64,000 nt of DNA, taken from the NCBI RefSeq assembly GCF_054482595.1, contig NZ_CM137008.1; one strand, 5' to 3'. The notes beneath the pieces were generated by a model. The model was given only the letters and a program-made list of their open reading frames with translations. It had not been told where the DNA came from and did no database searches. A program made the position numbers and the translations under genes. Positions 9,541 through 49,436 of the stretch are shown here, one piece after another; the stretch's first letter is position 1, and each line of letters begins with the position of its first letter.

Positions 9541-9679
9541 ACGCACTCCCTGTTAGTGGCTGACAAGGTGTATCTGAAATACACACCATCAGATTACTCA
9601 TTTAACTTAGGGAAAAATGCGAGCGGGATCGTGTTTAACCAGACGGCACCTCCCGAAGAAGGTGCCGAAGAAAAAACGA

Positions 9680-12903: not shown

Positions 12904-13119
12904 AGTGTCTGCCTCCAGTGGTCAGTAATCTGGAGTGTAGGTAACCGCATTCACTCTGGCGGGAAGAATTTACAAACTGTGATCTCGCCGCGAAAACATC
13001 AATATTATCCATTTTGCTGTAACACAATTGCTTTAATTGTTAATAATATTTTGCAATCAAGTTATCATAATCAAACAACTTCACTTGTCAGCGACACCGC
13101 TTCGTTTTTAACATCGCTT

Positions 13120-14043: not shown

Positions 14044-14080
14044 AAGGTGAAGGGATCTGTCGATCCCTCCTTGAACATTT

Positions 14081-15721: not shown

Positions 15722-15760
15722 TACCGTTGTCTCTCGTCCAGGTTTACTCCTGATAGAAAG

Positions 15761-15787
15761 TCATCGGCATTTGACGGTAATTACTTA
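15761..15787 (-). promoter_or_regulatory. Candidate sigma28 (FliA) promoter of trg
   Basis: Minus strand reads TAAGTAAT-N11-GCCGATGA about 40-65 nt upstream of trg start; close to sigma28 consensus TAAAGTTT-N11-GCCGATAA. Confidence 0.5.
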
Positions 15788-16016
15788 CGACTAAAAGCCT
15801 CTTTGCGTCACATTTTTACAACAATTATTGCAGAGAAGATTAATGCCATTGGAATGAAGAGAGTAACGAATGGTTAAACTGGCTAACCCGAATGACGAAA
15901 AATTCTGGAAAACAGCACGCAATTTCGTCAGGTGATTATTTTCGTCCCTAAGGAAACCACATAGGATGCTCACGGGTGCCTGAGACTTTCTGTTTTCAGG
16001 CTAACCGGGAATCAGA

Positions 16017-16061
16017 AAGACGAAGGCCCCGACCGATATTTCTATCAACCGAGGCCAACGA

Positions 16062-16072
<11 letters not shown>
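16017..16072 (-). ncRNA. sokB: sokB antisense RNA of the hokB/mokB locus; position inferred, boundaries approximate
   Basis: Placed antisense to the mokB translation-initiation region by analogy with hok/sok architecture; no independent sequence recognition. Confidence 0.35.
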
Positions 16073-16269
<197 letters not shown>

Positions 16270-16340
16270 GGGCAAGCGCGGGGATTTTCCCCGCGCATCT
16301 GACTAGCAGATTCATTTTCTCATGGCACCCCTTTTACACT

Positions 16341-16514
16341 TCAGTTAGTGCATGTTTTTTTCGATGCACTAATAGAACCATCATTACAGACAAATTTGCC
16401 GCCTGCCGTACAGTGTGAGATCCCCCCTTTCGAACCAGAACAGGGTTTGCGCCCGGCATCGGCATAAAAGGAAACAAGCGTTCCCATAAACAAAATAAGT
16501 GCCAGTTTTTTCAT
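16341..16514 (-). CDS. ydcA: Small secreted protein YdcA
   Basis: 57-aa ORF MKKLALILFMGTLVSFYADAGRKPCSGSKGGISHCTAGGKFVCNDGSISASKKTCTN; below track cutoff. Confidence 0.8.
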   Translation of the reverse strand: MKKLALILFMGTLVSFYADAGRKPCSGSKGGISHCTAGGKFVCNDGSISASKKTCTN

Positions 16515-16684
16515 ATAACCTCCATGGTTTATCGAATCTTATGTTCGATTTGAACGTTATACGCTGGTTTATTTTGATACCGTTGATGAGATCAAAGATC
16601 GGGTGAATTGATTAAAAATAAGGCAGATGGACGTATGGGCAAGGATTATGGTTTTATTTGTCATACAAATAAATATAATAGGCG

Positions 16685-16748
16685 CTTCCGATGTAGACCC
16701 GTATTCTTCGCCTGTACCACGGGTCGGTTTTAGTACAGGCGTTTTCTT
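16685..16748 (+). ncRNA. rydC: RydC small RNA (Hfq-dependent, pseudoknot-forming)
   Basis: 64 nt CTTCCGATGTAGACCCGTATTCTTCGCCTGTACCACGGGTCGGTTTTAGTACAGGCGTTTTCTT matches the RydC sequence as I remember it; ends in hairpin plus U-tract. Confidence 0.8.
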
Positions 16749-16758
16749 TAAATATCCT

Positions 16759-17289
16759 TCAGGAACGTTTACGCGGCATCATGCGTAGAAGTGTGTTGTC
16801 CTTCCAGAAATAGTGGTGTGCCAGTGCAGCCGCAGCGTGCAACCCGATGAGAAAATATCCCAGATTCGCCAGCGTCTCATGCCACGACTTTAAGCTATCA
16901 ACCCGTTCGAAATTGGCCTCTGAAGCGTAAGGCATCGTCAAACCAAACACAAACCACGGGTTGCCCCGGTTATACATCATCACCAAACCAATCACTGGCA
17001 GCGCAATAAACAGGAGATAAATCACCAAATGTCCCAAATGCGCCAGTCCCGTCATCATCGGTTTCGGCTTAGGTATAATCGGCGGGGTTGGGTATTTCAG
17101 TCTTAACAAAAGACGAACCACCATCAGCACGAGAATTGAGATGCCACAGGAAACATGAATCATGTTGATGAGCGGCCGATCGCTACGTGGGAAGAAACCC
17201 CGAAACTCCATTGCGCAATACGCTGCGATAACCAGCAAAAAGACCAGCCAGTGAATGCTGATTTGTAACCTTGAGTATTTATTTTCCAT
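16759..17289 (-). CDS. cybB: Cytochrome b561
   Basis: Track ORF trimmed to MENKYSRLQISIHWLVFLLVIAAY... (176 aa). Confidence 0.9.
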   Translation of the reverse strand: MENKYSRLQISIHWLVFLLVIAAYCAMEFRGFFPRSDRPLINMIHVSCGISILVLMVVRLLLRLKYPTPPIIPKPKPMMTGLAHLGHLVIYLLFIALPVIGLVMMYNRGNPWFVFGLTMPYASEANFERVDSLKSWHETLANLGYFLIGLHAAAALAHHYFWKDNTLLRMMPRKRS

Positions 17290-17477
17290 AACATTTCCTG
17301 CTTTAACATAATTTTCCGTTAACATAACGGGCTTTTCTCAAAATTTCATTAAATATTGTTCACCCGTTTTCAGTACGTTACGTTTCACTGTAAGAATGGA
17401 GATTGCCCATCCCACAATCCTGGGCTAAGCCTGGAAAGGATCAATTTTCATCCGAACGTTCCTGACAGGAGAAAACC

Positions 17478-18479
17478 ATGAGTAAAGTTGGTATTAACGG
17501 TTTTGGTCGTATCGGTCGACTGGTGTTGCGTCGATTACTTGAAGTCAAAAGCAACATAGACGTTGTCGCTATTAATGATCTTACTTCCCCAAAAATTCTC
17601 GCCTATCTGCTGAAACATGATTCAAACTATGGTCCGTTCCCCTGGAGCGTTGATTTTACGGAAGATTCACTTATCGTTGATGGGAAAAGTATCTCGGTTT
17701 ACGCCGAAAAAGAGGCTAAAAATATTCCGTGGAAAGCGAAAGGTGCAGAAATCATTGTCGAATGTACTGGCTTTTATACCTCCGCCGATAAATCGCAGGC
17801 GCATCTTGATGCTGGTGCGAAGAAGGTGTTGATTTCCGCTCCTGCCGGTGAAATGAAAACCATCGTTTATAACGTTAATGACGACACTCTGGATGGCAAC
17901 GATACCATTGTTTCCGTGGCGTCATGCACCACTAACTGCCTTGCGCCGATGGCCAAAGCCTTGCATGACAGTTTCGGGATAGAAGTCGGCACGATGACGA
18001 CCATTCATGCCTATACTGGCACCCAGTCACTGGTGGATGGCCCGCATGGTAAAGATTTACGTGCTTCACGCGCCGCGGCAGAAAATATCATTCCCCACAC
18101 TACGGGCGCGGCAAAAGCCATTGGTCTGGTGATCCCGGAACTGAGCGGCAAACTGAAAGGTCATGCGCAACGCGTGCCGGTGAAAACAGGTTCGGTCACT
18201 GAACTGGTATCGATTCTCGGAAAAAAAGTGACTGCCGAAGAGGTGAATAACGCACTTAAACAAGCAACCACCAATAACGAGTCATTTGGTTATACCGATG
18301 AAGAAATAGTCTCTTCCGATATCATTGGCAGCCATTTCGGTTCGGTGTTTGATGCCACGCAAACGGAAATTACCGCCGTGGGCGATTTACAACTGGTGAA
18401 AACGGTCGCCTGGTACGATAACGAATATGGCTTCGTCACGCAGCTTATTCGCACCCTCGAAAAATTCGCTAAACTCTGA
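17478..18479 (+). CDS. gapC: Glyceraldehyde-3-phosphate dehydrogenase GapC, intact 333-aa frame
   Basis: [19 protein letters not shown]..., catalytic SCTTNCLAP motif; continuous ORF. Confidence 0.9.
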
Positions 18480-18486
18480 CGCGCAC

Positions 18487-18518
18487 AGGCGGAGGAAAAA
18501 ACCTCCGCCTCTTTCACT
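18487..18518 (+). terminator. Intrinsic terminator after gapC (hairpin shared with convergent aldA)
   Basis: Perfect 9-bp stem aggcggagg/cctccgcct with A6 loop, followed by tctttcac. Confidence 0.5.
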
Positions 18519-18520
18519 CA

Positions 18521-19960
18521 TCAAGACTGTAAATAAACCACCTGGGTCTGCAGATATTCATGCAGGCCATGTTTACCATCTGCGCCGCCAATACCGGATT
18601 TACGCCATCCGGCGTGGAAGCCTTGCATAGCTTCGAAGTTTTCACGGTTGATGTAAGTTTCACCAAACTTCAGCCCTTTAATGGCTTTCATCGCGACGTT
18701 CAGATTTTGGGTATAGATTGATGAGGTCAGGCCGTAATCACTGTCATTAGCCATTGAGATAGCATCTTCCAGCGTGTCAAATGCGACTACCGGCAGAACC
18801 GGGCCAAAGGTTTCCTCATGCATAATCGACATTTCCTGGCGAACATCCAGCAGCAATGTCGGCGGATAATAATATCCTTTCCCCTCTACCGCTTTGCCAC
18901 CCAACGCCACTCTCGCCCCTTCTTCTACTGCGCGCGCCACTTTTTGCTCGACCCTTTCCAGCGCCGCGGCGTTAATCAACGGCCCCATCGCAATGTCGTT
19001 GCGTTCAGCGGGGTTACCAAATTGAACCGCCTGCATCGCTTCACCCAGCCGATTGACGAACTGATCATAAATGCCTTTCTGTACATAAACACGTTCTGCA
19101 CAGTTACACACTTGCCCACTATTAATGACACGTGAATCAACGATGGCTTTGACTGCCAGTTCAAGATCGGCATCGTCCATTACGATAGCTGGTGCTTTAC
19201 CCCCCAGTTCCAGGCACACTTTGGTGATGTTTTTCGCCGCAGTCGCCATGATCTTCTCACCTGCAGAGACGCTGCCTGTCATACTGACCATTGCGACCTT
19301 TGGGTTACCCGCCAGTTCTTGCCCAACGGTTTCACCACGCCCCAGAACAAGGTTAAACACGCCGCGCGGAAGGCCTATTTCATCGACGATTTTGGCGAAT
19401 GCAATCGCATTGTTTGGCGTAAATTCACTGGGTTTAATGACAATGGTATTACCAGTCAAAAGAGCGGGAGCCATTTTGCGGGCAATGAGGAAGAACGGGA
19501 AGTTCCACGGCAGAATGCCGGTAGTCACACCAAGCGCACGTTTAAACAGAAGAATATTTTCTCCTGGACGATCGCTTTGAATAATCTCGCCCTCGTAACG
19601 CCGTGCCCACTCCGCCATGTAATCGATATAGTCGGCAGTAAAAGCCACTTCGACTTCAGCCAGCTGCTGGATCTTGCCCCCTTCTTCAACAATCAGCGCA
19701 CTGATTTCACTGGCGCGTTCGCGGATCCCGGCGGAGATTTTGCGCAACCAACTGGCGCGTTCAATTGCAGGCAACGCTTCCCATTCTGGTTGTGCACGTT
19801 CTGCTGCATCGATTGCCTTACGGGCATCCTCGGCCTGACCATCGGGAATGCGGGAAATGACAGCCTCTGTAGCAGGGTTTACCACATCAATCCATGCGTC
19901 TCCACGCCAGGTAACAAACTGTCCATCAATATACATAGGATGTTGAACGGGTACTGACAT
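18521..19960 (-). CDS. aldA: Lactaldehyde dehydrogenase (NAD-dependent aldehyde dehydrogenase)
   Basis: 479-aa ORF MSVPVQHPMYIDGQFVTWRG... with ALDH catalytic region VCLELGGKAP and VCNCAERVYV. Confidence 0.9.
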   Translation of the reverse strand: MSVPVQHPMYIDGQFVTWRGDAWIDVVNPATEAVISRIPDGQAEDARKAIDAAERAQPEWEALPAIERASWLRKISAGIRERASEISALIVEEGGKIQQLAEVEVAFTADYIDYMAEWARRYEGEIIQSDRPGENILLFKRALGVTTGILPWNFPFFLIARKMAPALLTGNTIVIKPSEFTPNNAIAFAKIVDEIGLPRGVFNLVLGRGETVGQELAGNPKVAMVSMTGSVSAGEKIMATAAKNITKVCLELGGKAPAIVMDDADLELAVKAIVDSRVINSGQVCNCAERVYVQKGIYDQFVNRLGEAMQAVQFGNPAERNDIAMGPLINAAALERVEQKVARAVEEGARVALGGKAVEGKGYYYPPTLLLDVRQEMSIMHEETFGPVLPVVAFDTLEDAISMANDSDYGLTSSIYTQNLNVAMKAIKGLKFGETYINRENFEAMQGFHAGWRKSGIGGADGKHGLHEYLQTQVVYLQS

Positions 19961-34190: not shown

Positions 34191-37100
34191 TTAGAACGTT
34201 TTCTTAAAGTTCAGCATCACGCCTTTGTCGCTGATGCCGTCCTCTTTCCAGTGATACGCATCCAGATTCAGCGAACTTTCTTTGCTACTGTACTTCACGC
34301 CGACGCTCGCCAGGCTGTTGATACCGCCGCCCTTCTGACCGTCATCGACGTTAAAGTGCTGGCTGCCTGCCCCTGCAAGGCTTGCCGTGCGCTGGCTCTT
34401 GCTGTAGCTCAGGTTCGGCCCGCCTTCCAGCGTCGCATTCGCGCTCCAGCCGCCTTTCCCTGCGTAGTCCAGTTTCAGCCCGACGATGCTGTCCACCGCC
34501 GTTTCGCTGCCACTGTTCATATTCAGGTTAAAGTCTCCGGCATTGCGCTCCTGATAGCCACCTTCCAGTGTGTGACGCAGTTTTACACCCGCATATGGCG
34601 TAACCTTCAGTCCTTCGCTCGGTTCGAAAGTCTTCGCCACTTCGCTGCGGAACTCCAGGTACTGCTGCTTCACGTCGGTATCAGCCGTTTTGTTTGTGTT
34701 GCTAAATGCAATCGAACGGCTACTGTCAAGGTTGTGAACGTCATAACGCAATGCGTTATTCCAGTTCATGCCGTTGTCGAAGGACATCTGGTGCTTCAGG
34801 CCAAAGAACTGGCTATAACCACCTGTGACGCCATTATCACCCGCTTTCTGCGCACCATCACCATCGAGACGAGCGATACCGTACTCCAGACTCATCGTCT
34901 GGCTTTCGCTCAGGTCGATGGTTTTACGCAATGCCAGCATGTCGTATTCGGTATTATTACCTAACTCGGCACGTGGATCGCCTTTCGCAACAACGTTGAA
35001 CGCCAGACCGTTACCCACCTTCGGCGCGGCATCCGCCAGCATGCTGAAGCGGTTGCTTAACACACGCGCTTCACGGAATACCGTGGTCGCCTGGCTACCG
35101 CTCACCTGCTTCAGGGCGCTATTCAGTTCAGCAGTGGTGCCCACGTTCAGGCTGGTATACAGCTCGTTATTGGTGTAACCCGCATCCAGTGCCTTCGCCA
35201 CATCGTTCACCGAAGCATCGGTCGCCACATCGGTGTAGGCGTTTTTGCTCATGATGACGTCAACGTTGCCGCTGGCATCGGTGCTGCCTTTGGCGGTCCA
35301 TACCACGGACGTTGAGGTGATGGCATCGGCGTCGGTCAGGTTGATGCCTTCCACCACGTTGTCGAAACTGACCGTGGTGTCTGCCGTACCGGCGGCGAAA
35401 CCGGTGTTGATCCCGACACCATTCATGCTGGCGTTGTTAACCTTCAGTTTACCGGCGCTGCCGTCAACGTTGGTACCGACGATATAGCCGTTGAGGTTGT
35501 TACTGCTGCCATCGCTACTACCGCTATCAGTCGTTTCACTGAAAGGTGAAGTGGTGTAAGTGTTTGGCATGTCCGGCAACGTGTAGTCGGTGTAATGCAC
35601 TTCGGTATTGTTACCGCTGTTGCCGTTCACCCCTTCCACATTCACGCTGTCGCCCTGCTTAATCAACCCCGAACCAGTCACGCCGTCGGCAATCACCACC
35701 GTACCGTTGTTAACGATATGACCTTCTGTGCCCAGTACGCTGAACGCAAACGAGTCGTTAGCAAAAATATTGATCGTGCCGTTGTTCTCAATTACCGCAT
35801 CGGCGGTGGCATTGGCATCCAGTTGCATACCAGTCAATCCGGTATCGGTGGTGCCTTCGGTGCCGAGATTGATAACGCCGTTGTTAACCAGTTGTGCGTT
35901 TTTATCACCTTCCATCGCCACGGCATTGTTGCCGCTGATGTTCATCACGCCATCGTTGAGGGCAACATAGTTGTTGTGGGTGAATTTAACTGCGCTGGCG
36001 TTGTCTTTATCGAAGTTAATCACCCCGCCATCCTGGTTCCACAGGAAGGCATCGCTTTCTGTCGCACCAGCGGTACTTACCGCCACAGTGACTTTCGCAT
36101 CCACCACGCCCTTGTTAATAAACTGGCTGGCGCCGTCGTCATAGTGAATAGCGCCCGCGCCAAGTGCGGCATCCAGCGTCATTTCACCGGTGTTATATAA
36201 CGTGGCGTTAGCATTGCTTCCCTGGAAGCGAATGGCGTTTTTACTGTTATCAAGGATGAGCTTGCCGCTGTTGTTGAACGTTGATTGGTCGTCAATATCC
36301 AGCGTCCCGGCATTGTTATTTTCATCCTGATAACCCATTTTCCAGGTCCCCGCGTTATTCACCACCGCAGAGTTATAGAGAATGGCACCTTTACGCGCCT
36401 CGCCGCCTGCAAGGTTATTGAATACAGCATCGCCCTGGGCGTTAACGCGCGCCGACGCGATACCGCTGTTATTCACCGTGCCATCGTTAAGCTGTAAGGT
36501 TGACAGTGAACCGGTATTATTAATTACCGCGTTGCTGTTTTTCTCAATTTTTACGACGTCATTAAGCGTTCCGTTGTTATTGAAGGTTCCTCCTTCCAGA
36601 GTCACCGTGTTCAATACACCTTCATTGGTTAACGCACCGCCTTCATTCACGACGATGGCTGAGCTAATGGTTCCGCTCGACTCGTTAACCAGCGCACCAT
36701 TTTCGAGTATCCTGATCGTTCCATTTTTAACAGCACCCGCACTGGTGACATCCCCGTTGATAATCGCACCTGACGATAATAATACGGTCTCACCCGCAGA
36801 ACTTAATACATCGCCATCATCATATAAATCGGCAATATAATTATCCGTTGGATTATATTCATCGGCCCCCTGGCAAACGCCAAAGGTACAAATTGTGCCA
36901 TAGTTGATAATAAGCCCAGTGCCATCGTTATAGAATGCCTGACCATTTTCCGCGTTAATGTTGATTACGCCTGTCTGGTCATTAATGGCGGTGCCTTCGT
37001 GATAAACCGCCATGCCGACGAGTTTATTCACACCGAGAGAATCGTTGTAATTTTCATTTTTCTCCAGGTTGATGGTTCCCTGGTTAATGACCGTATTAGT

Positions 37101-40085
37101 ATTCCCATACGCCGCCATCCCCGCACCGGCGTTGTAGACAGTAATCACACCATTCTCGTGGTTGGTTGCCGTGGCTTTAGTTAATGCCCCATTATAGGCA
37201 TCGGTACCTGAAGCCATTCCCACACCGAAATCTTTCGCCGTGCTATTTGCAACATTATTACGCAGCGATGTTTCATCATTTTCATCGACCCACAGCGTAT
37301 CCAGGGTGATTTGCCCTTCGTTATCCGCGGTTGATTTATCGATAGCCAACATCCCCACGCTGCCACGACCATACATCTCAATAATACCCGTTTCGCCGTT
37401 CAGAATGGATGACGAGTAGCTGGCAAGCATACCTGTCAGCCCTAATGCCTTGTTATTGAAAGAGGTACCATCAGACAAGTTCCACTCTGCCGGATAATTC
37501 AGCACACTGTGCTGATTCATCATTTTGGTGGTCATGGTACCATTGTTAACGCCAATCCCACCGTATTCAACGTCAAAGACTTTTGGTGCCGGGTCGGTAC
37601 CAAAATCGTACATCGCCAGGCCAATGGATCCGTTATTGATTACCGTTGAATCTTTATTCCAGGCAGCCGCAAAACCGATATTTTTCAGTTCCACTTCACC
37701 GTTGTTTGTCGCCTTCGCACCAGAATCAATACTAATGGTGGATAACGCTACACGATAATAATAAGTGAAAGAATCCACATCACTCATATCAAACGTTGCG
37801 TCAGCGCCAATCTCCAGCTCCGCGCCATGGCTCAACTGAATGAGATTTTCGAACCCCAGCGGGAACTCGCCGCTGATGGTTGACTCACCATTCAGGTAGA
37901 CCGAGGAATGCCCATCAACGTTAATAAGCGGTGTGTCTCCGATACCACGACGAGATGCGGCAGGTTTTGAGCCATCATCCATGACATTTTTTTCACCGAC
38001 AAAATGAACACCGCCATTAAGCGTAAAGGTATTGTCATCGCCAGCAATAACAATACCCGCAATGTGTTCCTGAGCACCGTCGTAACTCGCATAGGAACGC
38101 GACGTGGTTTCACTATCAGCAACAACGGTTAACTGACCATCCAGCGTGACGTCGTTGTTGTCACCGCTGATATTTACCCCGGTTGAGGGATTAAAGAAGT
38201 AAGGCTGCGCATTATCAGCTTTCTGATCTTTATCAACCAGAATACTGCCCGCTATTTCGATAGTATTACCATCACCCGAAACATTAACACCTGTCGCTTC
38301 TTGCCCTGTCACATTCAGCCCATAAGTCGACAGCGTCATGTTGTTATTATCACCAGAGACATCAAGACCGGTGGAGAAATCCCCAACGTCTAACCCGCCC
38401 GCAAGTGAAATATTGGCTTTATCGCCTGCAACGCTGATACCGGTTCCGGCGTTGGTCGCGGTAATATCACCAACGTTAACAAATGTCGCATTATTACCGT
38501 CGATCTGAATGCCGATTGCATTTTCACCTGTAGCGGCCTGACCAACATTGAGGTCACCCATGTTGATCACGCTGACACCATCACCATCAAGCAGCATGCC
38601 GATAGAGTTTTCCTCGACGACCGTAATATTACCTTTGTTGCTGACGAACGTGTTGTTGCCGACAACGTCAATACCGTGCGCACCGCCGCTAACGTATAAG
38701 TCGCCTTCCTGTTTGATGATGGCATCGTCACCGACAACTTTCGAGCCAGTGGAATTCGCACCGTCAACGGTCATAGTACCTTTATTATCAACCCGCGCAT
38801 TATCGCCATTGATAAGGCTACCCGTACCGCCATTGGTGATGGTCGAGTCGCCCGCAGTGTTTAGCTTGGTATTATCGCCATTGATGATTACCGCGGTACC
38901 GCCATCAACTTCCGTCTCGCCATTATTGTTAATGGTGATATTGTCGCCGGTGAGTATACCGACAACCGAGCCTTCTCCGATGGCCGTCGTTTTGCCGTCG
39001 TTGTTGAGGGTGATGTTGTCACCATCAACCGTCATGACAGTACCGCCATTCAGCGCCGTGTTGCCGCCCTGATCGGTGATGATCGCGTTACCAAACTCAA
39101 TCGCATTCCCGGTTGTGCCGTCAACAACGACGCCGGCCTCTTTAGTGATGTGGATGAGTCCATCATCGTCGTAACTCCAGGTGATGCCACCTGAGGTATT
39201 TACGCCATCAAAGACAACGGTGTTGCTGTCGTCATGGACTGTCCAGGACTTAACTATCGTCTCCTTGCCCTCAGGCGCCGTTAAGGTGTAGCTCCCATCG
39301 GCATTTTGGCTGTAGGTAAAGGTGGTTTCGCGAATTTTGACGGTTTTCGCGTCCTGATCCCAGGTTACGTCATTTTTATAGACGACAGGATCGTGTTTAA
39401 CCGGGGTATCGCCACCATCGTCTGGCGGAACAGGCGTATCACCGCCGTCGTCTGGAACTGGCGTATCACCGCCATCATCTGGTGGAACCGGCGTATCACC
39501 GCCGTCATCTGGTGGAACCGGCATATCACCGCCGTCATCTGGCGGAACTGGCGTATCACCGCCGTCATCTGGCGGAACTGGCGTATCACCGCCGTCATCT
39601 GGCGGAACCGGCGTATCATCGCCGTCATCTGGCGGAACTGGCGTATCACCGCCGTCATCTGGCGGAACTGGCGTATCACCGCCGTCATCTGGCGGAACCG
39701 GCGTATCACCGCCGTCATCTGGCGGAACCGGCGTATCACCGCCGTCGTCTGGCGGAACAGGCGTATCACCGCCATCATCCGGAACTGGGGAGTTATTATG
39801 GTGGTGATTGTCATCGTCACTTAAGGTATATATAGCAATTCCCGTAGCTACTGCAGCAAGACCTGCAGCTGCCCATGGTAAAACTGCACTATCTTTATTT
39901 TCTCTGCACTCCGCGGATAAATTTTCTAGCTGCTCTTTGCTCAGGGAATGAATATTTGCCGGACATGTTATCTTACTGGACTTACGTGTTTTTTCGGTTG
40001 AGTCGGGTATTGAAGTATCCGCAGCCCATGTCTGGCTACTTAACGCCATGGCAACACAAACAGACAATAATTTTTTCCTTTGCAT
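34191..40085 (-). CDS. ydbA: Giant autotransporter (type Va) YdbA, uninterrupted: signal peptide, Pro/Asp/Gly-rich decapeptide repeat stalk, beta-helical passenger, C-terminal beta-barrel ending in Phe
   Basis: Track ORF 34191..40124 trimmed to MQRKKLLSVCVAMALSSQTWA (SD AAGGA 8 nt upstream); passenger full of GxNxT/GDNxxV beta-helix repeats; terminal ...VMLNFKKTF. Confidence 0.85.
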   Translation of the reverse strand: MQRKKLLSVCVAMALSSQTWAADTSIPDSTEKTRKSSKITCPANIHSLSKEQLENLSAECRENKDSAVLPWAAAGLAAVATGIAIYTLSDDDNHHHNNSPVPDDGGDTPVPPDDGGDTPVPPDDGGDTPVPPDDGGDTPVPPDDGGDTPVPPDDGDDTPVPPDDGGDTPVPPDDGGDTPVPPDDGGDMPVPPDDGGDTPVPPDDGGDTPVPDDGGDTPVPPDDGGDTPVKHDPVVYKNDVTWDQDAKTVKIRETTFTYSQNADGSYTLTAPEGKETIVKSWTVHDDSNTVVFDGVNTSGGITWSYDDDGLIHITKEAGVVVDGTTGNAIEFGNAIITDQGGNTALNGGTVMTVDGDNITLNNDGKTTAIGEGSVVGILTGDNITINNNGETEVDGGTAVIINGDNTKLNTAGDSTITNGGTGSLINGDNARVDNKGTMTVDGANSTGSKVVGDDAIIKQEGDLYVSGGAHGIDVVGNNTFVSNKGNITVVEENSIGMLLDGDGVSVINMGDLNVGQAATGENAIGIQIDGNNATFVNVGDITATNAGTGISVAGDKANISLAGGLDVGDFSTGLDVSGDNNNMTLSTYGLNVTGQEATGVNVSGDGNTIEIAGSILVDKDQKADNAQPYFFNPSTGVNISGDNNDVTLDGQLTVVADSETTSRSYASYDGAQEHIAGIVIAGDDNTFTLNGGVHFVGEKNVMDDGSKPAASRRGIGDTPLINVDGHSSVYLNGESTISGEFPLGFENLIQLSHGAELEIGADATFDMSDVDSFTYYYRVALSTISIDSGAKATNNGEVELKNIGFAAAWNKDSTVINNGSIGLAMYDFGTDPAPKVFDVEYGGIGVNNGTMTTKMMNQHSVLNYPAEWNLSDGTSFNNKALGLTGMLASYSSSILNGETGIIEMYGRGSVGMLAIDKSTADNEGQITLDTLWVDENDETSLRNNVANSTAKDFGVGMASGTDAYNGALTKATATNHENGVITVYNAGAGMAAYGNTNTVINQGTINLEKNENYNDSLGVNKLVGMAVYHEGTAINDQTGVININAENGQAFYNDGTGLIINYGTICTFGVCQGADEYNPTDNYIADLYDDGDVLSSAGETVLLSSGAIINGDVTSAGAVKNGTIRILENGALVNESSGTISSAIVVNEGGALTNEGVLNTVTLEGGTFNNNGTLNDVVKIEKNSNAVINNTGSLSTLQLNDGTVNNSGIASARVNAQGDAVFNNLAGGEARKGAILYNSAVVNNAGTWKMGYQDENNNAGTLDIDDQSTFNNSGKLILDNSKNAIRFQGSNANATLYNTGEMTLDAALGAGAIHYDDGASQFINKGVVDAKVTVAVSTAGATESDAFLWNQDGGVINFDKDNASAVKFTHNNYVALNDGVMNISGNNAVAMEGDKNAQLVNNGVINLGTEGTTDTGLTGMQLDANATADAVIENNGTINIFANDSFAFSVLGTEGHIVNNGTVVIADGVTGSGLIKQGDSVNVEGVNGNSGNNTEVHYTDYTLPDMPNTYTTSPFSETTDSGSSDGSSNNLNGYIVGTNVDGSAGKLKVNNASMNGVGINTGFAAGTADTTVSFDNVVEGINLTDADAITSTSVVWTAKGSTDASGNVDVIMSKNAYTDVATDASVNDVAKALDAGYTNNELYTSLNVGTTAELNSALKQVSGSQATTVFREARVLSNRFSMLADAAPKVGNGLAFNVVAKGDPRAELGNNTEYDMLALRKTIDLSESQTMSLEYGIARLDGDGAQKAGDNGVTGGYSQFFGLKHQMSFDNGMNWNNALRYDVHNLDSSRSIAFSNTNKTADTDVKQQYLEFRSEVAKTFEPSEGLKVTPYAGVKLRHTLEGGYQERNAGDFNLNMNSGSETAVDSIVGLKLDYAGKGGWSANATLEGGPNLSYSKSQRTASLAGAGSQHFNVDDGQKGGGINSLASVGVKYSSKESSLNLDAYHWKEDGISDKGVMLNFKKTF
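39401..39790. repeat. Tandem array of about 13 units of a 30-bp repeat (one 27-bp unit) inside ydbA, encoding PPDDGGDTPV
   Basis: ggcggaacYggcgtatcaccgccgtcatct repeated head-to-tail in exact 30-nt register from 39481 to 39780 with degenerate flanking units. Confidence 0.9.
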
Positions 40086-40492
40086 ATAAAATTCCTTAGA
40101 TCTAGACCGTGCGTAACAAGCCATGCAGAATTTGAAGATAAATCGTAGTAAATATTCATAGTGAAATAAGCAATAAAGAAATGCTTATATAATTCACAAA
40201 ATCAATATTAAAATCAGGCAAGTAAAAGCATACAAAAAAACAGTTGATGGAATTATATTCCACAAAAAACTCACTTCAATCTAAAAATTAACGACAAAAA
40301 ACAAAAACACACTAATAATTCATTGACGCTGCATATATATTTTGTGATTACATATATATTGGTAATGATTTGTTATTTAAGGGAAGGATATATAAGGTTT
40401 TTGTAGAAATACCCACGGTAATTAAGCATGCTAACGTCAGTTTAAATACTGTAAAAGATCATTAATAGATACATTTTGTAGCCAACTATAAT

Positions 40493-40819
40493 TTATTTGC
40501 GCAACCATTTACCATTAACTCCCTGAACATATTGCCCCGACTTCGCGCGAGCAACAAGCTTTTGTCCAGCCAGTTTGGCTATCTCTTTAGTGGATACATT
40601 ATTTTGCTTTGCCAGTTGTTGGTAACTATGGTTACGAGCTTCATTAATATCTTTTACTAATGCCTGTGTTTCGGCATCCGTTTGTAGCGCCACCAGGTAA
40701 CCGTTAAGCGTTTCACCTACCCGCCCCTGACTTCTGGCTTCGTTCAGGGTTAAAGCCATTGCACTGTCGCTCATCAGGCCAATGGCCCATACAGCTATGA
40801 GTAATGTTCTTTTCATCAT
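40493..40819 (-). CDS. ydbL: DUF1318-family periplasmic protein YdbL
   Basis: Track ORF trimmed to MMKRTLLIAVWAIGLMSDSAMA... (108 aa). Confidence 0.8.
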   Translation of the reverse strand: MMKRTLLIAVWAIGLMSDSAMALTLNEARSQGRVGETLNGYLVALQTDAETQALVKDINEARNHSYQQLAKQNNVSTKEIAKLAGQKLVARAKSGQYVQGVNGKWLRK

Positions 40820-40823
40820 CACC

Positions 40824-41009
40824 TCAAAATAGATCGCTACGGGTTTTGAGCAGGTCTTCAACGTCCTTATCCGCTTTAATGATGATTTCATGCTCAATTT
40901 TAACGTTCATATTAATGGTGATTGGCTCTTTCGGCGCAGCTACTTCAATGCGAGGCGTGCAACCAACCAACATAAAAGAGGACGCAAACGCGGCTATCAC
41001 TATTTTCAT
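40824..41009 (-). CDS. ynbE: Lipoprotein YnbE
   Basis: 61-aa ORF MKIVIAAFASSFMLVGCTP... with lipobox; 4-nt overlap with ydbH stop. Confidence 0.8.
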   Translation of the reverse strand: MKIVIAAFASSFMLVGCTPRIEVAAPKEPITINMNVKIEHEIIIKADKDVEDLLKTRSDLF

Positions 41010-43645
41010 TGTTTTTCCTCACACTCTTTTCCTGATGGGCAGCCAGTTTCCGGTAGCTGGGCATTCTGCTCCAGCCATAACTGGAGATTATCGCCAAAGC
41101 GTAAACTGCGCCATAACGTAAAAATATTCTCTTCATGGTGATAATTAAGGTTTACCGTACCGCTTTTACCATCGACGCGACTGGTGCCCGAAATGTTGGC
41201 CTGCATGGTTAACACACCGAGATTATCTAAATTAATCCTTGTTGATGAGCGACTGATTTCCATATAACGCAACCAGTTGATGGCAGTTCCAGCGGTCATA
41301 TTGTCTTTGGCCACCGCATCTGCAGTGTCTTTATCCAGCCGCAAGGTCATTGGCCCGCTATTTGCCAGCCAACCATCTTTCACTATCCATTTTTCATTGT
41401 TCAGCCATAGTGGCAAGGCCCCACTGAATGCCCCGGACATGGCAAATTGTTTCGGATTGACGGCGCTAACCAGTTCGCTGGATGAGAGATTATTCAGCCG
41501 CAACAGCGCCGGGTCATGTTGCGGCATACGTAATTGTTTCATCAGCACGTTACCGCCTAACACATCGACGCTAACATCAGTCAACAGCAATGGTTCTTCT
41601 TCAGTCCACGGATAACGCCCTTGCAAATCAGCCGTAATATTTTTCGCTGTCACCAGATTAATCACTTCGGCAATTCGCAACGTAACGGGGCCGCGAGTCC
41701 CAAGATGCCAGGCTCCATCGGCAAAACGGAAAGGCAGGACAAAATCGACACCGTTAACCTGATTATCTGGCATCCAGGCACTACCGCCTTTCAACACGCC
41801 GTGCCCTCCCGCGCGGAATCCTTGTTCAGGCGCAGCAGAAAATGCAACCTGAGCATACAGTTCACCATCGCGTAAGTTCATCTTCCAGTCGGGTGGCACC
41901 AGCGGCTGGAATACAGTCAGTGATTGTTTAGGCCACCAGGCGTTACCGCGCAGACGAATACCGTCCCAGCGACCATTTACCCGAACCGGGCCAATCTCAC
42001 CAGCATGTAAATCGCCTTTAAAGAGGAAATACGTCGGATCGCGCCCATCGACGCTAAACTTTAAGGTTGATGGCGGTAACACACTGCCGCCAGTGAACAG
42101 CGTTTGCCCGGCGTCCAGTGACAGCGCGCCGCTGAAGGAGAGATGCTGTGCGTCACGTACCCAGACGACGGGCTTGTCGAGAATTAGTCGCGGCTTTTCT
42201 ACCGTCATCGTACCGTATTGTAACTGGTCGAAACCGGTGGAGAGGTCGGTCAGCGTAATCGTGCTGTCATGCCACTCACCTTTTCCTGCGACATCCCAGG
42301 TGGCATTCATCGGTGTAAAACTGCCTTTTCCCCAGTAGCGCCACTGCCAGCGGCCAGCGTCAGGGAGAAAATCATTCGCCAGCCCATCCATATGCAGCAC
42401 GAAATCGCCCAGTTCATTTTCATGCGCCTGCAAAATGGCCTGCAAACGTCCGTCAACACCACGTTGGGTGACTTTTACACCCGCTAAAGGCCAGCGGATT
42501 TCATCGATGTCCAGCGAATCGATGACTCTTCCCTTTGAACGAAGTAACGCGCCTGGCTCAAAGGTCAGCGTTGGGTCAGACAGACTTCCACTTACCTGCG
42601 CAGGTAAACGGGCATATAAAATGAGGTCCGCCTGTTTCGCTTCACCGGTCAGTTGCATAGGCAGCTGGCTGTTATCCATGCTTAATTTTCCTGGGCCAAA
42701 ATTTAGCACCGCGTTGCCCTTACCCGCTTGCCCCTGGGTCAGCACACTCAGTCGTCCGCTGACCAGAGCGTTCTCAAGCCCTGCCTGCCAGTTGTCGACT
42801 TTGACACCCAGTCGGCCACTCAAAGGAAAACCTGCATACGGCCAGCTCCAGCGACCATCGCTTACGGTCAATTGTTGACGCGTAATTTGCCACGGCAAAT
42901 CGAGCAACGGATCGCCGTTATCCCGTGCCAGCACAATCAATTGCCCGCTATTCTCCTGCCAGTCCAGCTCGGCATCTACCAGTGACGGTTCCTGCGGCAA
43001 GTTTAACGTCGCAGTAGCATGACCACTTACAGGAAGTCCATCCGGCACGAGCGGCATAGTAAATTCCCCCACCAGTTTAACCGGCGGCTGATTTTCAAAC
43101 GCGACGACATCCAGTTCGCTGACTGTAAGTTGTTGCCCTTTCAGCTGGCCTTGAAATTTAACTTTTTCGCCCTGATAACGCAGTTGCTGGATATCGGAGG
43201 TTAATGCGAGAGAGAGTTTTCCCTGCCATTCCTGCCAGGGAGAAAAAATCAGTTTATCGATATTGATCCAGGTGTTAGGCAGCATGGACTGCCATTGCGC
43301 GAGGGTTTTTGGAGCAGCTGGCGATTGCTCCGTCTGCGGCAATTTCGCCAGACAAGCAGAATCAAGTTCTACCGTGCCGACGTTCAATAACCAGCGGCTG
43401 GGATGTGAAAGGCTGGCGTTGGTGATATGCGCAAGCTGACAATCTCCCACCAGATAACGGAGATCGGGAATGATTAAACCTTTACGCGTAATGCGTGGGC
43501 TTTCATCTAATGCAATACGTGTCCCGAGCGGTAGCCAGATGCCCGCCAGCGTGGGAACCCACAGCCCGAGCGTCATCAGCAGCGTCAACGGCACAAGAAT
43601 AATCAGTAATAACAGCGCGAGAACGGCTTTATATTTACCCAGCAT
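41006..43645 (-). CDS. ydbH: AsmA-like large envelope protein YdbH
   Basis: 879-aa ORF with N-terminal membrane anchor MLGKYKAVLALLLLIILVPLTLLM... Confidence 0.9.
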   Translation of the reverse strand: MLGKYKAVLALLLLIILVPLTLLMTLGLWVPTLAGIWLPLGTRIALDESPRITRKGLIIPDLRYLVGDCQLAHITNASLSHPSRWLLNVGTVELDSACLAKLPQTEQSPAAPKTLAQWQSMLPNTWINIDKLIFSPWQEWQGKLSLALTSDIQQLRYQGEKVKFQGQLKGQQLTVSELDVVAFENQPPVKLVGEFTMPLVPDGLPVSGHATATLNLPQEPSLVDAELDWQENSGQLIVLARDNGDPLLDLPWQITRQQLTVSDGRWSWPYAGFPLSGRLGVKVDNWQAGLENALVSGRLSVLTQGQAGKGNAVLNFGPGKLSMDNSQLPMQLTGEAKQADLILYARLPAQVSGSLSDPTLTFEPGALLRSKGRVIDSLDIDEIRWPLAGVKVTQRGVDGRLQAILQAHENELGDFVLHMDGLANDFLPDAGRWQWRYWGKGSFTPMNATWDVAGKGEWHDSTITLTDLSTGFDQLQYGTMTVEKPRLILDKPVVWVRDAQHLSFSGALSLDAGQTLFTGGSVLPPSTLKFSVDGRDPTYFLFKGDLHAGEIGPVRVNGRWDGIRLRGNAWWPKQSLTVFQPLVPPDWKMNLRDGELYAQVAFSAAPEQGFRAGGHGVLKGGSAWMPDNQVNGVDFVLPFRFADGAWHLGTRGPVTLRIAEVINLVTAKNITADLQGRYPWTEEEPLLLTDVSVDVLGGNVLMKQLRMPQHDPALLRLNNLSSSELVSAVNPKQFAMSGAFSGALPLWLNNEKWIVKDGWLANSGPMTLRLDKDTADAVAKDNMTAGTAINWLRYMEISRSSTRINLDNLGVLTMQANISGTSRVDGKSGTVNLNYHHEENIFTLWRSLRFGDNLQLWLEQNAQLPETGCPSGKECEEKQ

Positions 43646-43852: not shown

Positions 43853-44842
43853 ATGAAACTCGCCGTTTATAGCACAAAACAGTACGACAAGAAGTACCTG
43901 CAACAGGTGAACGAGTCCTTTGGCTTTGAGCTGGAATTTTTTGACTTTCTGCTGACGGAAAAAACCGCTAAAACCGCCAATGGATGCGAAGCGGTATGTA
44001 TTTTCGTAAACGATGACGGAAGCCGCCCGGTGCTGGAAGAGCTGAAAAAGCACGGCGTTAAATATATCGCCCTGCGCTGTGCCGGTTTCAATAACGTCGA
44101 CCTTGACGCGGCAAAAGAACTGGGGCTGAAAGTAGTTCGTGTTCCAGCCTATGATCCAGAAGCCGTTGCTGAACACGCCATCGGTATGATGATGACGCTG
44201 AACCGCCGTATTCACCGCGCGTATCAGCGTACCCGTGACGCTAACTTCTCTCTGGAAGGTCTGACCGGCTTTACTATGTATGGCAAAACGGCAGGCGTTA
44301 TCGGTACCGGTAAAATCGGTGTGGCGATGCTGCGCATTCTGAAAGGTTTTGGTATGCGTCTGCTGGCGTTCGATCCGTATCCAAGTGCAGCGGCGCTGGA
44401 ACTCGGTGTGGAGTATGTCGATCTGCCAACCCTGTTCTCTGAATCAGACGTTATCTCTCTGCACTGCCCGCTGACACCGGAAAACTACCATCTGTTGAAC
44501 GAAGCCGCCTTTGATCAGATGAAAAATGGCGTGATGATCGTCAATACCAGTCGCGGTGCATTGATTGATTCTCAGGCGGCAATTGAAGCGCTGAAAAATC
44601 AGAAAATTGGTTCGTTGGGTATGGACGTCTATGAGAACGAACGCGATCTGTTCTTTGAAGATAAATCCAACGACGTGATCCAGGATGACGTATTCCGTCG
44701 CCTGTCTGCATGCCACAACGTGCTGTTTACCGGGCACCAGGCATTCCTGACAGCAGAAGCTCTGACCAGTATTTCTCAGACTACGCTGCAAAACTTAAGC
44801 AATCTGGAAAAAGGCGAAACCTGCCCGAACGAACTGGTTTAA
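43853..44842 (+). CDS. ldhA: Fermentative D-lactate dehydrogenase (NAD-dependent)
   Basis: 329-aa ORF MKLAVYSTKQYDKKYLQQVNE..., NAD-binding GVIGTGKIG. Confidence 0.95.
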   Translation: MKLAVYSTKQYDKKYLQQVNESFGFELEFFDFLLTEKTAKTANGCEAVCIFVNDDGSRPVLEELKKHGVKYIALRCAGFNNVDLDAAKELGLKVVRVPAYDPEAVAEHAIGMMMTLNRRIHRAYQRTRDANFSLEGLTGFTMYGKTAGVIGTGKIGVAMLRILKGFGMRLLAFDPYPSAAALELGVEYVDLPTLFSESDVISLHCPLTPENYHLLNEAAFDQMKNGVMIVNTSRGALIDSQAAIEALKNQKIGSLGMDVYENERDLFFEDKSNDVIQDDVFRRLSACHNVLFTGHQAFLTAEALTSISQTTLQNLSNLEKGETCPNELV

Positions 44843-45911: not shown

Positions 45912-48900
45912 ATGATTACTATTGACGGTAATGGCGCGGTTGCTTCGGTGGCGTTTCGCACCAGTGAAGTTATCGCCATCTACCCTATTACCCCCAGTTC
46001 CACGATGGCAGAACAGGCTGATGCCTGGGCCGGAAACGGCTTGAAGAACGTTTGGGGAGACACACCACGCGTGGTTGAAATGCAGTCGGAGGCGGGTGCT
46101 ATCGCTACCGTGCATGGCGCTTTGCAGACGGGTGCCCTTTCAACATCGTTTACGTCATCGCAGGGTTTGCTGCTGATGATCCCGACGCTGTACAAACTGG
46201 CAGGCGAACTCACACCGTTTGTCCTGCATGTAGCGGCACGTACCGTTGCCACACATGCACTTTCTATTTTTGGCGATCATTCCGACGTCATGGCGGTGCG
46301 CCAGACGGGTTGCGCGATGTTGTGTGCGGCAAACGTCCAGGAAGCGCAAGACTTTGCTCTCATTTCGCACATCGCGACGCTGAAAAGCCGCGTGCCATTT
46401 ATTCATTTCTTTGATGGTTTCCGTACGTCCCACGAAATCAACAAAATTGTCCCGCTGGCCGATGACACTATTCTTGATCTCATGCCGCAGGCCGAAATTG
46501 ATGCTCATCGCGCCCGGGCGCTCAACCCGGAACATCCGGTGATCCGCGGTACGTCAGCCAATCCTGACACTTATTTCCAGTCTCGCGAAGCCACCAACCC
46601 ATGGTACAACGCGGTCTATGACCATGTTGAACAGGCGATGAATGATTTCTCTGCCGCGACAGGTCGTCAGTATCAGCCGTTTGAATATTACGGGCATCCG
46701 CAAGCGGAACGGGTGATTATCCTGATGGGCTCTGCCATTGGCACCTGTGAAGAAGTGGTTGATGAATTGCTAACCCGTGGCGAAAAAGTTGGCGTGCTGA
46801 AAGTTCGCCTGTACCGTCCCTTCTCCGCCAAACACTTGCTGCAAGCTCTGCCGGGATCCGTACGCAGCGTGGCGGTACTGGACAGAACCAAAGAACCCGG
46901 TGCCCAGGCAGAACCGCTCTATCTGGATGTAATGACCGCACTGGCAGAAGCCTTTAATAATGGCGAGCGCGAAACTCTGCCCCGTGTCATTGGTGGGCGC
47001 TATGGTCTTTCATCCAAAGAATTTGGCCCGGACTGTGTACTGGCGGTATTTGCCGAGCTCAACGCGGCTAAACCGAAAGCGCGCTTTACGGTTGGTATTT
47101 ACGATGATGTGACCAATCTGTCACTGCCGTTGCCGGAAAACACCCTGCCAAACTCGGCGAAACTGGAAGCCTTGTTTTATGGCCTTGGTAGTGATGGCAG
47201 CGTTTCCGCGACCAAAAACAATATCAAGATTATCGGTAATTCCACGCCGTGGTACGCACAGGGTTATTTTGTTTACGACTCCAAAAAGGCGGGCGGCCTG
47301 ACGGTTTCTCACCTTCGCGTGAGCGAACAGCCGATTCGTTCCGCTTATCTCATTTCCCAGGCTGATTTTGTTGGCTGCCACCAGTTGCAGTTTATCGATA
47401 AATATCAGATGGCTGAGCGTTTAAAACCTGGCGGCATTTTCCTGCTTAATACGCCGTACAGCGCAGATGAAGTGTGGTCGCGCTTGCCGCAAGAAGTTCA
47501 GGCCGTGTTAAACCAGAAAAAAGCGCGCTTCTATGTAATTAACGCAGCGAAAATCGCCCGCGAATGTGGCCTGGCGGCCCGTATTAATACCGTCATGCAG
47601 ATGGCTTTTTTCCATCTGACGCAAATTCTGCCTGGCGATAGCGCCCTCGCAGAATTGCAGGGTGCGATTGCCAAAAGTTACAGTAGCAAAGGCCAGGATC
47701 TGGTGGAACGCAACTGGCAGGCTCTGGCGCTGGCGCGTGAATCCGTAGAAGAAGTTCCGTTGCAACCGGTAAATCCGCACAGCGCCAATCGACCGCCAGT
47801 GGTTTCCGATGCCGCCCCTGATTTCGTGAAAACCGTAACCGCGGCGATGCTCGCCGGGCTTGGTGATGCCCTCCCCGTTTCGGCGCTGCCGCCAGACGGC
47901 ACCTGGCCGATGGGCACCACTCGCTGGGAAAAACGCAATATCGCCGAAGAGATCCCCATCTGGAAAGAGGAACTCTGTACCCAATGTAACCACTGCGTCG
48001 CCGCTTGCCCACACTCAGCTATTCGCGCAAAAGTGGTACCGCCTGAAGCGATGGAAAACGCCCCTGCCAGCCTGCATTCGCTGGATGTGAAATCGCGTGA
48101 TATGCGCGGGCAGAAATATGTCTTGCAGGTGGCTCCAGAAGATTGCACCGGTTGTAACCTGTGCGTCGAAGTTTGCCCGGCGAAAGACCGTCAGAATCCA
48201 GAGATTAAAGCCATCAATATGATGTCGCGCCTGGAACATGTCGAAGAAGAGAAAATCAATTACGATTTCTTCCTCAACCTGCCAGAAATCGACCGTAGCA
48301 AACTGGAACGTATTGATATTCGTACATCGCAGCTGATTACACCACTGTTTGAATATTCCGGTGCTTGCTCCGGTTGTGGCGAGACGCCGTATATTAAATT
48401 GCTGACTCAGCTCTATGGCGACCGGATGTTGATCGCTAACGCCACCGGCTGTTCTTCAATTTATGGCGGTAACCTGCCCTCTACACCGTATACCACCGAT
48501 GCCAACGGTCGTGGGCCGGCATGGGCGAACTCTCTATTTGAAGATAATGCCGAATTTGGCCTTGGTTTCCGCCTGACGGTCGATCAACACCGTGTCCGCG
48601 TGCTGCGTCTGCTGGATCAATTTGCCGATAAAATCCCGGCGGAATTACTGACGGCGTTGAAATCAGACGCCACGCCAGAGGTTCGTCGTGAACAGGTTGC
48701 AGCTTTACGCCAGCAACTCAATGATGTTGCCGAAGCACATGAACTGCTGCGTGACGCAGATGCACTGGTGGAAAAATCAATCTGGCTGATTGGTGGCGAC
48801 GGCTGGGCTTACGATATCGGCTTTGGCGGTCTGGATCATGTATTGAGTTTGACGGAAAACGTCAACATTCTGGTGCTGGATACGCAATGCTATTCCAACA

Positions 48901-49436
48901 CCGGTGGTCAGGCGTCGAAAGCGACACCGCTGGGTGCAGTAACTAAATTTGGCGAGCACGGCAAACGTAAAGCGCGTAAAGATCTTGGCGTCAGTATGAT
49001 GATGTACGGTCATGTTTATGTGGCGCAGATTTCTCTCGGCGCGCAACTGAACCAGACGGTGAAAGCGATTCAGGAAGCGGAAGCGTATCCGGGACCATCG
49101 CTGATCATTGCTTATAGCCCGTGTGAAGAGCATGGTTACGATCTGGCACTCAGCCATGACCAGATGCGCCAACTCACAGCTACCGGCTTCTGGCCGCTAT
49201 ATCGCTTCGATCCGCGTCGTGCCGATGAAGGCAAACTGCCGCTGGCGCTGGATTCACGCCCGCCGTCAGAAGCACTGGAAGAAACGTTACTTCACGAGCA
49301 ACGTTTCCGTCGTCTGAATTCGCAGCAGCCAGAAGTGGCAGAACAGTTATGGAAAGATGCTGCAGCTGATTTGCAAAAACGCTATGACTTCCTGGCACAA
49401 ATGGCCGGAAAAGCGGAAAAAAGCAACACCGATTAA
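45912..49436 (+). CDS. ydbK: Pyruvate:flavodoxin/ferredoxin oxidoreductase (PFOR)
   Basis: 1174-aa ORF with two 4Fe-4S ferredoxin motifs (CTQCNHCVAACP, CTGCNLCVEVCP) and TPP-binding region. Confidence 0.95.
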   Translation: MITIDGNGAVASVAFRTSEVIAIYPITPSSTMAEQADAWAGNGLKNVWGDTPRVVEMQSEAGAIATVHGALQTGALSTSFTSSQGLLLMIPTLYKLAGELTPFVLHVAARTVATHALSIFGDHSDVMAVRQTGCAMLCAANVQEAQDFALISHIATLKSRVPFIHFFDGFRTSHEINKIVPLADDTILDLMPQAEIDAHRARALNPEHPVIRGTSANPDTYFQSREATNPWYNAVYDHVEQAMNDFSAATGRQYQPFEYYGHPQAERVIILMGSAIGTCEEVVDELLTRGEKVGVLKVRLYRPFSAKHLLQALPGSVRSVAVLDRTKEPGAQAEPLYLDVMTALAEAFNNGERETLPRVIGGRYGLSSKEFGPDCVLAVFAELNAAKPKARFTVGIYDDVTNLSLPLPENTLPNSAKLEALFYGLGSDGSVSATKNNIKIIGNSTPWYAQGYFVYDSKKAGGLTVSHLRVSEQPIRSAYLISQADFVGCHQLQFIDKYQMAERLKPGGIFLLNTPYSADEVWSRLPQEVQAVLNQKKARFYVINAAKIARECGLAARINTVMQMAFFHLTQILPGDSALAELQGAIAKSYSSKGQDLVERNWQALALARESVEEVPLQPVNPHSANRPPVVSDAAPDFVKTVTAAMLAGLGDALPVSALPPDGTWPMGTTRWEKRNIAEEIPIWKEELCTQCNHCVAACPHSAIRAKVVPPEAMENAPASLHSLDVKSRDMRGQKYVLQVAPEDCTGCNLCVEVCPAKDRQNPEIKAINMMSRLEHVEEEKINYDFFLNLPEIDRSKLERIDIRTSQLITPLFEYSGACSGCGETPYIKLLTQLYGDRMLIANATGCSSIYGGNLPSTPYTTDANGRGPAWANSLFEDNAEFGLGFRLTVDQHRVRVLRLLDQFADKIPAELLTALKSDATPEVRREQVAALRQQLNDVAEAHELLRDADALVEKSIWLIGGDGWAYDIGFGGLDHVLSLTENVNILVLDTQCYSNTGGQASKATPLGAVTKFGEHGKRKARKDLGVSMMMYGHVYVAQISLGAQLNQTVKAIQEAEAYPGPSLIIAYSPCEEHGYDLALSHDQMRQLTATGFWPLYRFDPRRADEGKLPLALDSRPPSEALEETLLHEQRFRRLNSQQPEVAEQLWKDAAADLQKRYDFLAQMAGKAEKSNTD

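Follow-up and report, generated by a model that had tools for sequence, protein, structure and literature searches.

A feaRB-tynA-paa-free ydbL-ydbA junction in Escherichia coli lies in a divergent haplotype that was probably imported from a non-coli Escherichia

The window analyzed here is a stretch of 64,000 nucleotides (contig NZ_CM137008.1 of RefSeq assembly GCF_054482595.1), in which the genes ydbA, ydbL, ynbE and ydbH form a series on the minus strand according to the ORF list and are followed, past ydbH, by the plus-strand genes ldhA (43853..44842) and nifJ/ydbK (45912..49436). ORF list, translation and Pfam analysis identified an intact autotransporter gene of the ydbA/BigA family at 34191..40085 (minus strand, 1964 aa). 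The longest ydbA ORF opens at 40124 (34191..40124, 1977 codons), and its second ATG, at 40085, is the start of a typical signal peptide in the translation (MQRKKLLSVCVAMALSSQTWA/AD, beginning MQRKKLL). The peptide aligns with the N-terminus of K-12 YdbA, and the annotation of strain XH990 (99.99% identity to the window over 25 kb) begins the gene at the same ATG. With 40085 as the ydbA start, the intergenic interval that separates the stop of ydbL from this start (no strand) is therefore exactly 40086..40492. The first-pass annotation, made from the sequence alone, had placed ydbL about 400 bp from ydbA and described an AT-rich spacer without ORFs between them. Both statements hold: sequence and ORF list put ydbL and the BigA-type start 407 bp apart, the G+C content of the spacer is 27% versus 49% for the whole window, and the ORF list contains no credible ORF in 40086..40492, only chance ORFs of at most 39 aa.

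The ydbA product contains the Pfam domains BigA_N and BigA_beta (PF25784 and PF25783), both above cut-off. Its C-terminal 1167 aa are 70.6% identical to K-12 YdbA, and its N-terminal passenger shows 34% aa identity. These two domains, together with the K-12-like translocator region, place the protein in the YdbA/BigA autotransporter adhesin family. Its score against the NCBIfam equivalog model auto_BigA was 1084 bits, below the cut-off of 3400, and the protein is therefore a member of the family and not BigA itself. Tandem Repeats Finder and translation revealed a 30-bp tandem repeat of 12.8 copies at 39399..39779 (minus strand), encoding a proline-rich PPDDGGDTPV linker near the YdbA N-terminus. 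XH990-type and O157 genomes contain different numbers of copies of this repeat, within which the draft contig of Escherichia sp. E1V33 breaks off. Whereas ydbA is a single 1964-aa ORF in the window, the K-12 copy is a pseudogene interrupted by IS2 and IS30. In ATCC 25922, a phylogroup B2 strain, a 2698-aa ydbA autotransporter (positions 525-8621 of locus L005) is labelled 'EntS/YbdA MFS transporter' in RefSeq, an apparent confusion of the names ydbA and ybdA. The 3′ end of ydbA and the end of pdxI in this strain (L005 1-1634, compared with window 33666-35288) show about 85% identity to both the window and K-12, and would thus represent a third deep allele class of the locus.

Directly beyond the spacer lies ydbL (40493..40816, minus strand; DUF1318 by Pfam, from the ORF list), a divergent allele whose identity is 71% aa and about 78% nt to K-12 and 99% aa to E1V33. 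The next gene, ynbE (40824..41009, minus strand; Lipoprotein_19 by Pfam), encodes the outer-membrane lipoprotein partner of YdbH and is 90% identical to K-12 at the aa level. It is followed by ydbH (41006..43645, minus strand), encoding an AsmA-like lipid-bridge protein. The divergent block described below takes in the 3′ end of ydbH up to about 41483. The remainder of the gene is E. coli sequence of the ordinary kind, with 98-100% identity to K-12, and the differences of YdbH from its K-12 counterpart are concentrated in the final 100 residues. It has been reported that YdbH, YnbE and YdbL interact, forming or regulating a lipid bridge from the inner to the outer membrane, and that YdbL is a periplasmic chaperone of YnbE (PMC11126948). 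The gene order and the YdbH-like, Lipoprotein_19 and DUF1318 domains found here identify the three genes as this lipid-bridge operon.

Judging from its position, the spacer plausibly acts as promoter and 5′ leader region of ydbA, and it is expected to hold the end of the ydbH-ynbE-ydbL transcript. The best sigma-70-like match is a candidate site at 40252..40279 (minus strand; TTGAAG, 16 nt, TATAAT; 10/12 positions), reading from 40279 to 40252 and located 167 nt upstream of the ydbA ATG. Around the spacer four sigma-70-like matches were counted versus 3.3 ± 2.3 in shuffled sequences, which is not an excess. A promoter and terminator scan found no terminator-like hairpin after ydbL, and an Rfam scan of 39900-40700 gave no match.

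In the annotated record of K-12 MG1655, the gene order is ydbL-feaR-feaB-tynA-paaZ-paaABCDEFGHIJK-paaXY-(ynbG, a 21-aa ORF)-ydbA, in agreement with the first-pass annotation; its figure of about 17 kb for the intervening island has to be corrected to 18.8 kb (positions 1128..19931 of the K-12 locus L002). Relative to K-12, all of these 18.8 kb and all 17 island genes are missing from the window. When the 17 genes were used as queries in tblastn and blastn searches, no DNA or protein-coding remnant of the island was detected in the 64 kb, and the sole tblastn matches to island proteins fell in a paralogous aldehyde dehydrogenase at about 18500-19950 (26-32% identity). Sequence, ORFs and these searches thus bear out the central claim of the annotation, that the feaRB-tynA-paa island is absent from the ydbL-ydbA junction. 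The surroundings are those of the K-12 region, with ydbK/nifJ, ldhA, ydbH, ynbE and ydbL to one side and ydbA, pdxI, ydbD and ynbA-D to the other, the differences being the island genes and the IS2- and IS30-split ydbA of K-12. The fea-paa region of K-12 does not have the hallmarks of a classical mobile island, as no mobility gene is annotated in it, no direct repeats were found at its boundaries, set by the empty site of B2 strains, and several other genera share the ydbL-feaR synteny. One MG1655 isolate record (NZ_CP174267.1) lists paaA (L002 11346-12275) as a pseudogene that contains an internal stop. Farther along the window, at about 51510-51735 (compared with L002 31017-31243), homology to K-12 stops just after uspF. 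There, XH990 continues from uspF to ttcA and dbpA, and in K-12 the site is occupied by the terminal part of the Rac prophage (ynaM, ydfK, pinR, stfR); from the continuity of uspF, ttcA and dbpA it follows that Rac is absent from the uspF site.

Copies of paa elsewhere in the genome, singled out beforehand as evidence that would count against the claim, were found neither in XH990 nor in the other closest junction-type genomes. The search used a combined query of 1651 nt of junction DNA and five 300-nt probes (feaR, tynA, paaC, paaH and paaX). It hit one place per genome in the 60 best genomes by megablast and in the 25 best by sensitive blastn (word size 11), XH990 being in both sets, and no genome of either set had a second matching record, so homologues of the five genes were absent elsewhere in these genomes. 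An earlier joined query had matched 3656 places in 3651 genomes, hence five extra places, and a joined query including the ydbA passenger gave 14 places per genome, a number inflated by the 30-bp repeat. The source genome of the window itself was read over 64 kb, and absence of the island elsewhere rests on its closest complete relatives; for all 373-374 junction-type genomes, the absence of island genes has been bounded but falls short of proof.

TynA, FeaB and the Paa enzymes have established roles in the breakdown of phenylethylamine and phenylacetate. Because these roles are established and the genes are absent, the strain is predicted not to grow on phenylacetate or 2-phenylethylamine. 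The same prediction had been made in the initial reading of the locus; it follows from the genotype and agrees with published data for O157:H7.

The junction (window 39850-40950, 1101 nt) is present at an identity of at least 99% in 373 of 5426 complete E. coli genomes, among them O157:H7 and O55:H7, and is 100% identical in XH990. Of the island genes, at least part of paaA-paaZ-tynA was detected in about 3277 genomes (intact in 3123), and one or more island probes matched about 3316 genomes. In 1035 genomes, ydbL lies within about 1.2 kb of K-12-type DNA from upstream of ydbA. The window has in common with O157:H7 and O55:H7 (phylogroup E) the same junction (98.4-99.2% identity), the lack of fea, tynA and paa genes, and the same divergent YdbL protein (WP_000831640.1). 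The match is contiguous from the 5′ end of ydbA to ynbE and includes no island genes, which assigns the window to the O157:H7-type island-free junction haplotype. It differs from O157 in three respects: ydbA is one intact ORF in the window but is annotated as two ORFs (1011 and 819 aa) in the O157 strain AR-0430, the number of ydbA repeat copies is not the same, and the ydbH-side breakpoint, sharp in O157, takes the form of a mosaic (41462-41339) in the window.

Absence of the island as such is already known, having been published for O157:H7, phylogroup E and B2. Heterogeneity of the paa locus, situated between ydbH-ynbE-ydbL and ynbC-ynbD-azoR, has been described (PMC4951805), paa was reported to be absent from phylogroups B2 and E (PMC5422975), and tynA was PCR-negative in 28 of 28 O157:H7 and 11 of 11 neonatal-meningitis isolates (PMC4640556). 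In other E. coli the fea-tynA-paa region has been partly deleted or rearranged many times independently, examples being a tynA-paaX fusion and, in E. coli C, a feaR-paaB/C junction. In the capybara strain A23, an IS1-mediated inversion/deletion splits ydbL.

The spacer had been suggested at first to hold the scar of a deletion or insertion, which could be checked by alignment with the ydbL-feaR and paaY-ydbA junctions of K-12. This alignment gave no similarity above that of shuffled sequences (Smith-Waterman). No BLAST match was obtained between the spacer and the spacer of the B2 empty site, and tblastn and blastn with the 17 island genes detected no paaY or feaR fragments in or near it. Lacking homology to the K-12 and B2 junctions, lacking remnants and flanked by deeply divergent sequence, the spacer gives no support to the scar idea. 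Two kinds of island-free site that occur in E. coli were compared with it. In ATCC 25922, position 8932 joins K-12 positions 1127 and 19932 of L002, both flanks being K-12-like (88-97% identity). A true scar is found in strain S6, where a 3′ fragment of paaY is fused to a 3′ fragment of feaR adjoining ydbL (L026 4245-4823). The B2-type sites (ATCC 25922, Nissle 1917 and CFT073-like) and S6 resemble the window in that ydbL is a few hundred bp from ydbA, the island is absent and the predicted phenotype is the same, but they keep K-12-type ydbL and junction DNA and show either a precise 18.8-kb gap or gene remnants. Accordingly, a clean empty site of the B2 type was rejected for the window on the Smith-Waterman scores and the missing B2 match, and a scar of the S6 type on the missing paaY and feaR fragments. 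Since the spacer and flanks of the window are unrelated to those of B2-type sites, the loss is independent of theirs and different in kind. We conclude that 40086-40492 is an ordinary intergenic region of an island-free ydbH-ynbE-ydbL/ydbA haplotype.

Sliding identity and BLAST analyses delimited a haplotype block of about 6.3 kb (35200..41483, no strand) that is divergent from K-12 and contains the ydbA passenger, the spacer, ydbL, ynbE and the 3′ end of ydbH. On the ydbH side, homology to K-12 starts at 40495 and amounts to 73-84% over ydbL and ynbE, 84-93% up to 41500 and 98-100% above that position. Toward ydbA, identity to K-12 is 93-97% in the translocator region, drops at 35200-36000 and then stays under 60-70% over the passenger. 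When one genome per species was scanned, the YdbL of the window matched those of E1V33 (99%), E. whittamii (89%), SCPM-O-B-8794 (87%) and E. albertii (80%). E1V33 is 99-100% identical to the window from about 41300 to 39724, where its contig ends, including the spacer (99-100%) and the 5′ end of ydbA, and its flanks (nifJ, ldhA and most of ydbH) are about 88% identical. Apart from E1V33, the sole match found for the spacer was a weak one, of its ydbA-proximal 126 nt to the equivalent spacer of E. whittamii (67% identity); comparison with the K-12 junctions, B2, E. albertii, SCPM-O-B-8794 and Citrobacter revealed no homology.

Analysis of informative sites, i.e. the roughly 170 positions separating K-12 from E1V33, located a recombination breakpoint zone at 41339..41483 (no strand). 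At essentially all of these sites, O157 has the K-12 state down to 41483 and the E1V33 state from 41462. Between 41462 and 41339, the window displays alternating patches of K-12 and E1V33 state, with the E1V33 state thereafter, whereas O157 is uniformly of E1V33 state; the mosaic suggests later recombination within E. coli at the edge of an imported block. The divergent block and its breakpoint on the ydbH side are thus directly visible. The E1V33 copy differs from E. coli copies by 0.4-1.0% and E. coli copies differ from the window by 0.2-0.8%, and since these distances are similar, sequence distance gives no direction of transfer. The E1V33 type was represented by one genome, from a species-representative collection, in which the shared tract lies at a contig end within the ydbA repeat, and the comparison therefore covers the ydbH-side boundary only. 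Looking up the exact YdbL protein of E1V33 returned eight loci, all eight from ordinary E. coli. A literature search for strain E1V33 yielded nothing relevant.

The layout of the locus was also compared across species. The synteny ydbL-feaR-feaB-tynA-paaZ occurs in SCPM-O-B-8794, the representative of a separate non-coli Escherichia species, and in Pseudocitrobacter, Pluralibacter and Cedecea; in Raoultella about 4 kb separate ydbL from the fea genes. The presence of this synteny in other genera indicates that the position of the island beside ydbL is ancient, and the island-free haplotype must therefore have undergone a deletion at some stage of its past. In E. albertii ydbL is directly adjacent to pdxI, and next to the E. 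whittamii ydbL come a collinear spacer similar in length to that of the window, a ydbA remnant and pdxI. The shared layout of E. whittamii indicates that the island-free arrangement is old in non-coli Escherichia. Island-free layouts have arisen several times, and the loss in the donor lineage is old enough to have left no trace. The island of SCPM-O-B-8794 is 91-98% identical to that of K-12 in most 200-bp windows, with two near 0.83-0.90, and its ydbH about 88% identical, a comparison to be read with the reservation that metabolic genes may evolve more slowly. The K-12-type ynbE-ydbL segment (window 40493-41050 compared with L002 19996-20560) shows 74-82% identity to other Escherichia, the others being 85-93% identical to one another, and the majority E. 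coli allele thus appears as a phylogenetic outlier.

The absence of the island does not stem from a recent deletion in situ. We favor the interpretation, with a probability of roughly 0.65, that the island-free segment was imported from an E1V33-like non-coli Escherichia by homologous recombination. A donor segment without the island would have replaced the resident locus in an ancestor of the O157:H7, O55:H7 and XH990-type lineages, by one crossover in the 3′ end of ydbH (41462-41483) and a second one inside ydbA (about 35200-36000); the direction of transfer, like the crossover within ydbA, is our inference. The boundary within E. coli and the boundary between E. coli and E1V33 share the same 21 bp, which makes one import the most economical account, as a transfer in reverse or a chimeric contig would require a coincidence. 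That a single import from an E1V33-like cryptic Escherichia both deleted the island and installed foreign lipid-bridge alleles and a foreign YdbA passenger is a stronger statement, for which we consider the odds to be about even. The tract resembles known introgressions at surface-protein loci between Escherichia lineages (cryptic clades) in being a short stretch of 99-100% identity within about 12% divergence, with a sharp breakpoint and a hypervariable adhesin gene. It differs from them in that it also removes, or never had, a metabolic island, and in that it carries the YdbH C-terminus, YnbE and YdbL of the lipid-transport bridge (PMC11126948). It is tempting to speculate that these three were exchanged as a co-adapted set.

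A caveat to the import is the anomaly of the K-12-type ynbE-ydbL, because of which it may be the majority E. coli allele that was imported instead. The island-free haplotype would then be an old native allele of E. coli that was donated to E1V33, with the K-12-type ynbE-ydbL introduced, possibly along with the island, from a relative that branches more deeply. This polarity would fit the outlier status of the K-12 type (74-82% to E1V33, E. whittamii and E. albertii, against 85-93% for the window type), as well as the position of the E1V33 copy about within the range of E. coli copies and the wide occurrence of its exact YdbL protein on E. coli chromosomes. However, it needs two independent crossovers in the one 21-bp interval 41462-41483. 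Moreover, from 41462 to about 41050 the window and O157 match E1V33 while K-12 is at a species-level distance (85-91%), as predicted by import from E1V33, and SCPM-O-B-8794 has the island beside a window-like ydbL, showing that the K-type ydbL is no prerequisite of the island. We therefore regard the reverse polarity as unlikely, although it is the most serious of the alternatives.

Considerably less probable is an artefact, in which the E1V33 draft contig is chimeric or contaminated and the window haplotype is an old balanced polymorphism of E. coli. The shared tract does occupy the final 1.6 kb or so of a draft contig that ends in a repeat, and only a single such genome is present in the species-representative collection. 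Nevertheless, a chimeric join would have to hit the E. coli-internal breakpoint by chance, the E1V33 copy is identical to none of the E. coli copies examined (99.0-99.6%), and its distances to E. whittamii and SCPM-O-B-8794 are continuous across the boundary.

The loss of feaR to paaY from a K-12-arranged ancestor in one deletion, with the spacer as its scar, is the least probable account: despite the paaY′-′feaR fusion kept beside ydbL in S6, the clean 18.8-kb gap of ATCC 25922 and Nissle relative to K-12, and internal island deletions in many genomes and in the literature (PMC4951805; PMC3032704 for E. coli B), it predicts K-12-like flanks, while the spacer matches neither K-12 junction above shuffles and holds no gene remnants, and ydbL (78% nt) and the ydbA passenger (34% aa) are far from K-12 in a window where 1-2% divergence is typical of E. 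coli.

As first stated, the finding matters little, since variable carriage of fea-tynA-paa is already documented, and the island's absence gives a simple prediction of a growth phenotype; what the analysis adds lies in method and evolution. The introgressed island-free haplotype with its mapped breakpoint is a modest new detail, one that calls for more genomes of the donor lineage. The paa-negative state of E. coli would be reached by at least three routes, namely the clean 18.8-kb gap, the deletion leaving a paaY′-′feaR scar, and replacement by a foreign island-free haplotype, and tables of presence and absence therefore conceal independent histories. The 29%-divergent YdbL, the variant YnbE and the variant C-terminus of YdbH offer natural variants for probing the partner specificity of YdbH and YnbE. 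If the introgression is true, EHEC would owe one of its typical metabolic losses, as a by-product, to recombination at a hypervariable locus for a surface protein, and the loss as such would not have been the object of selection.
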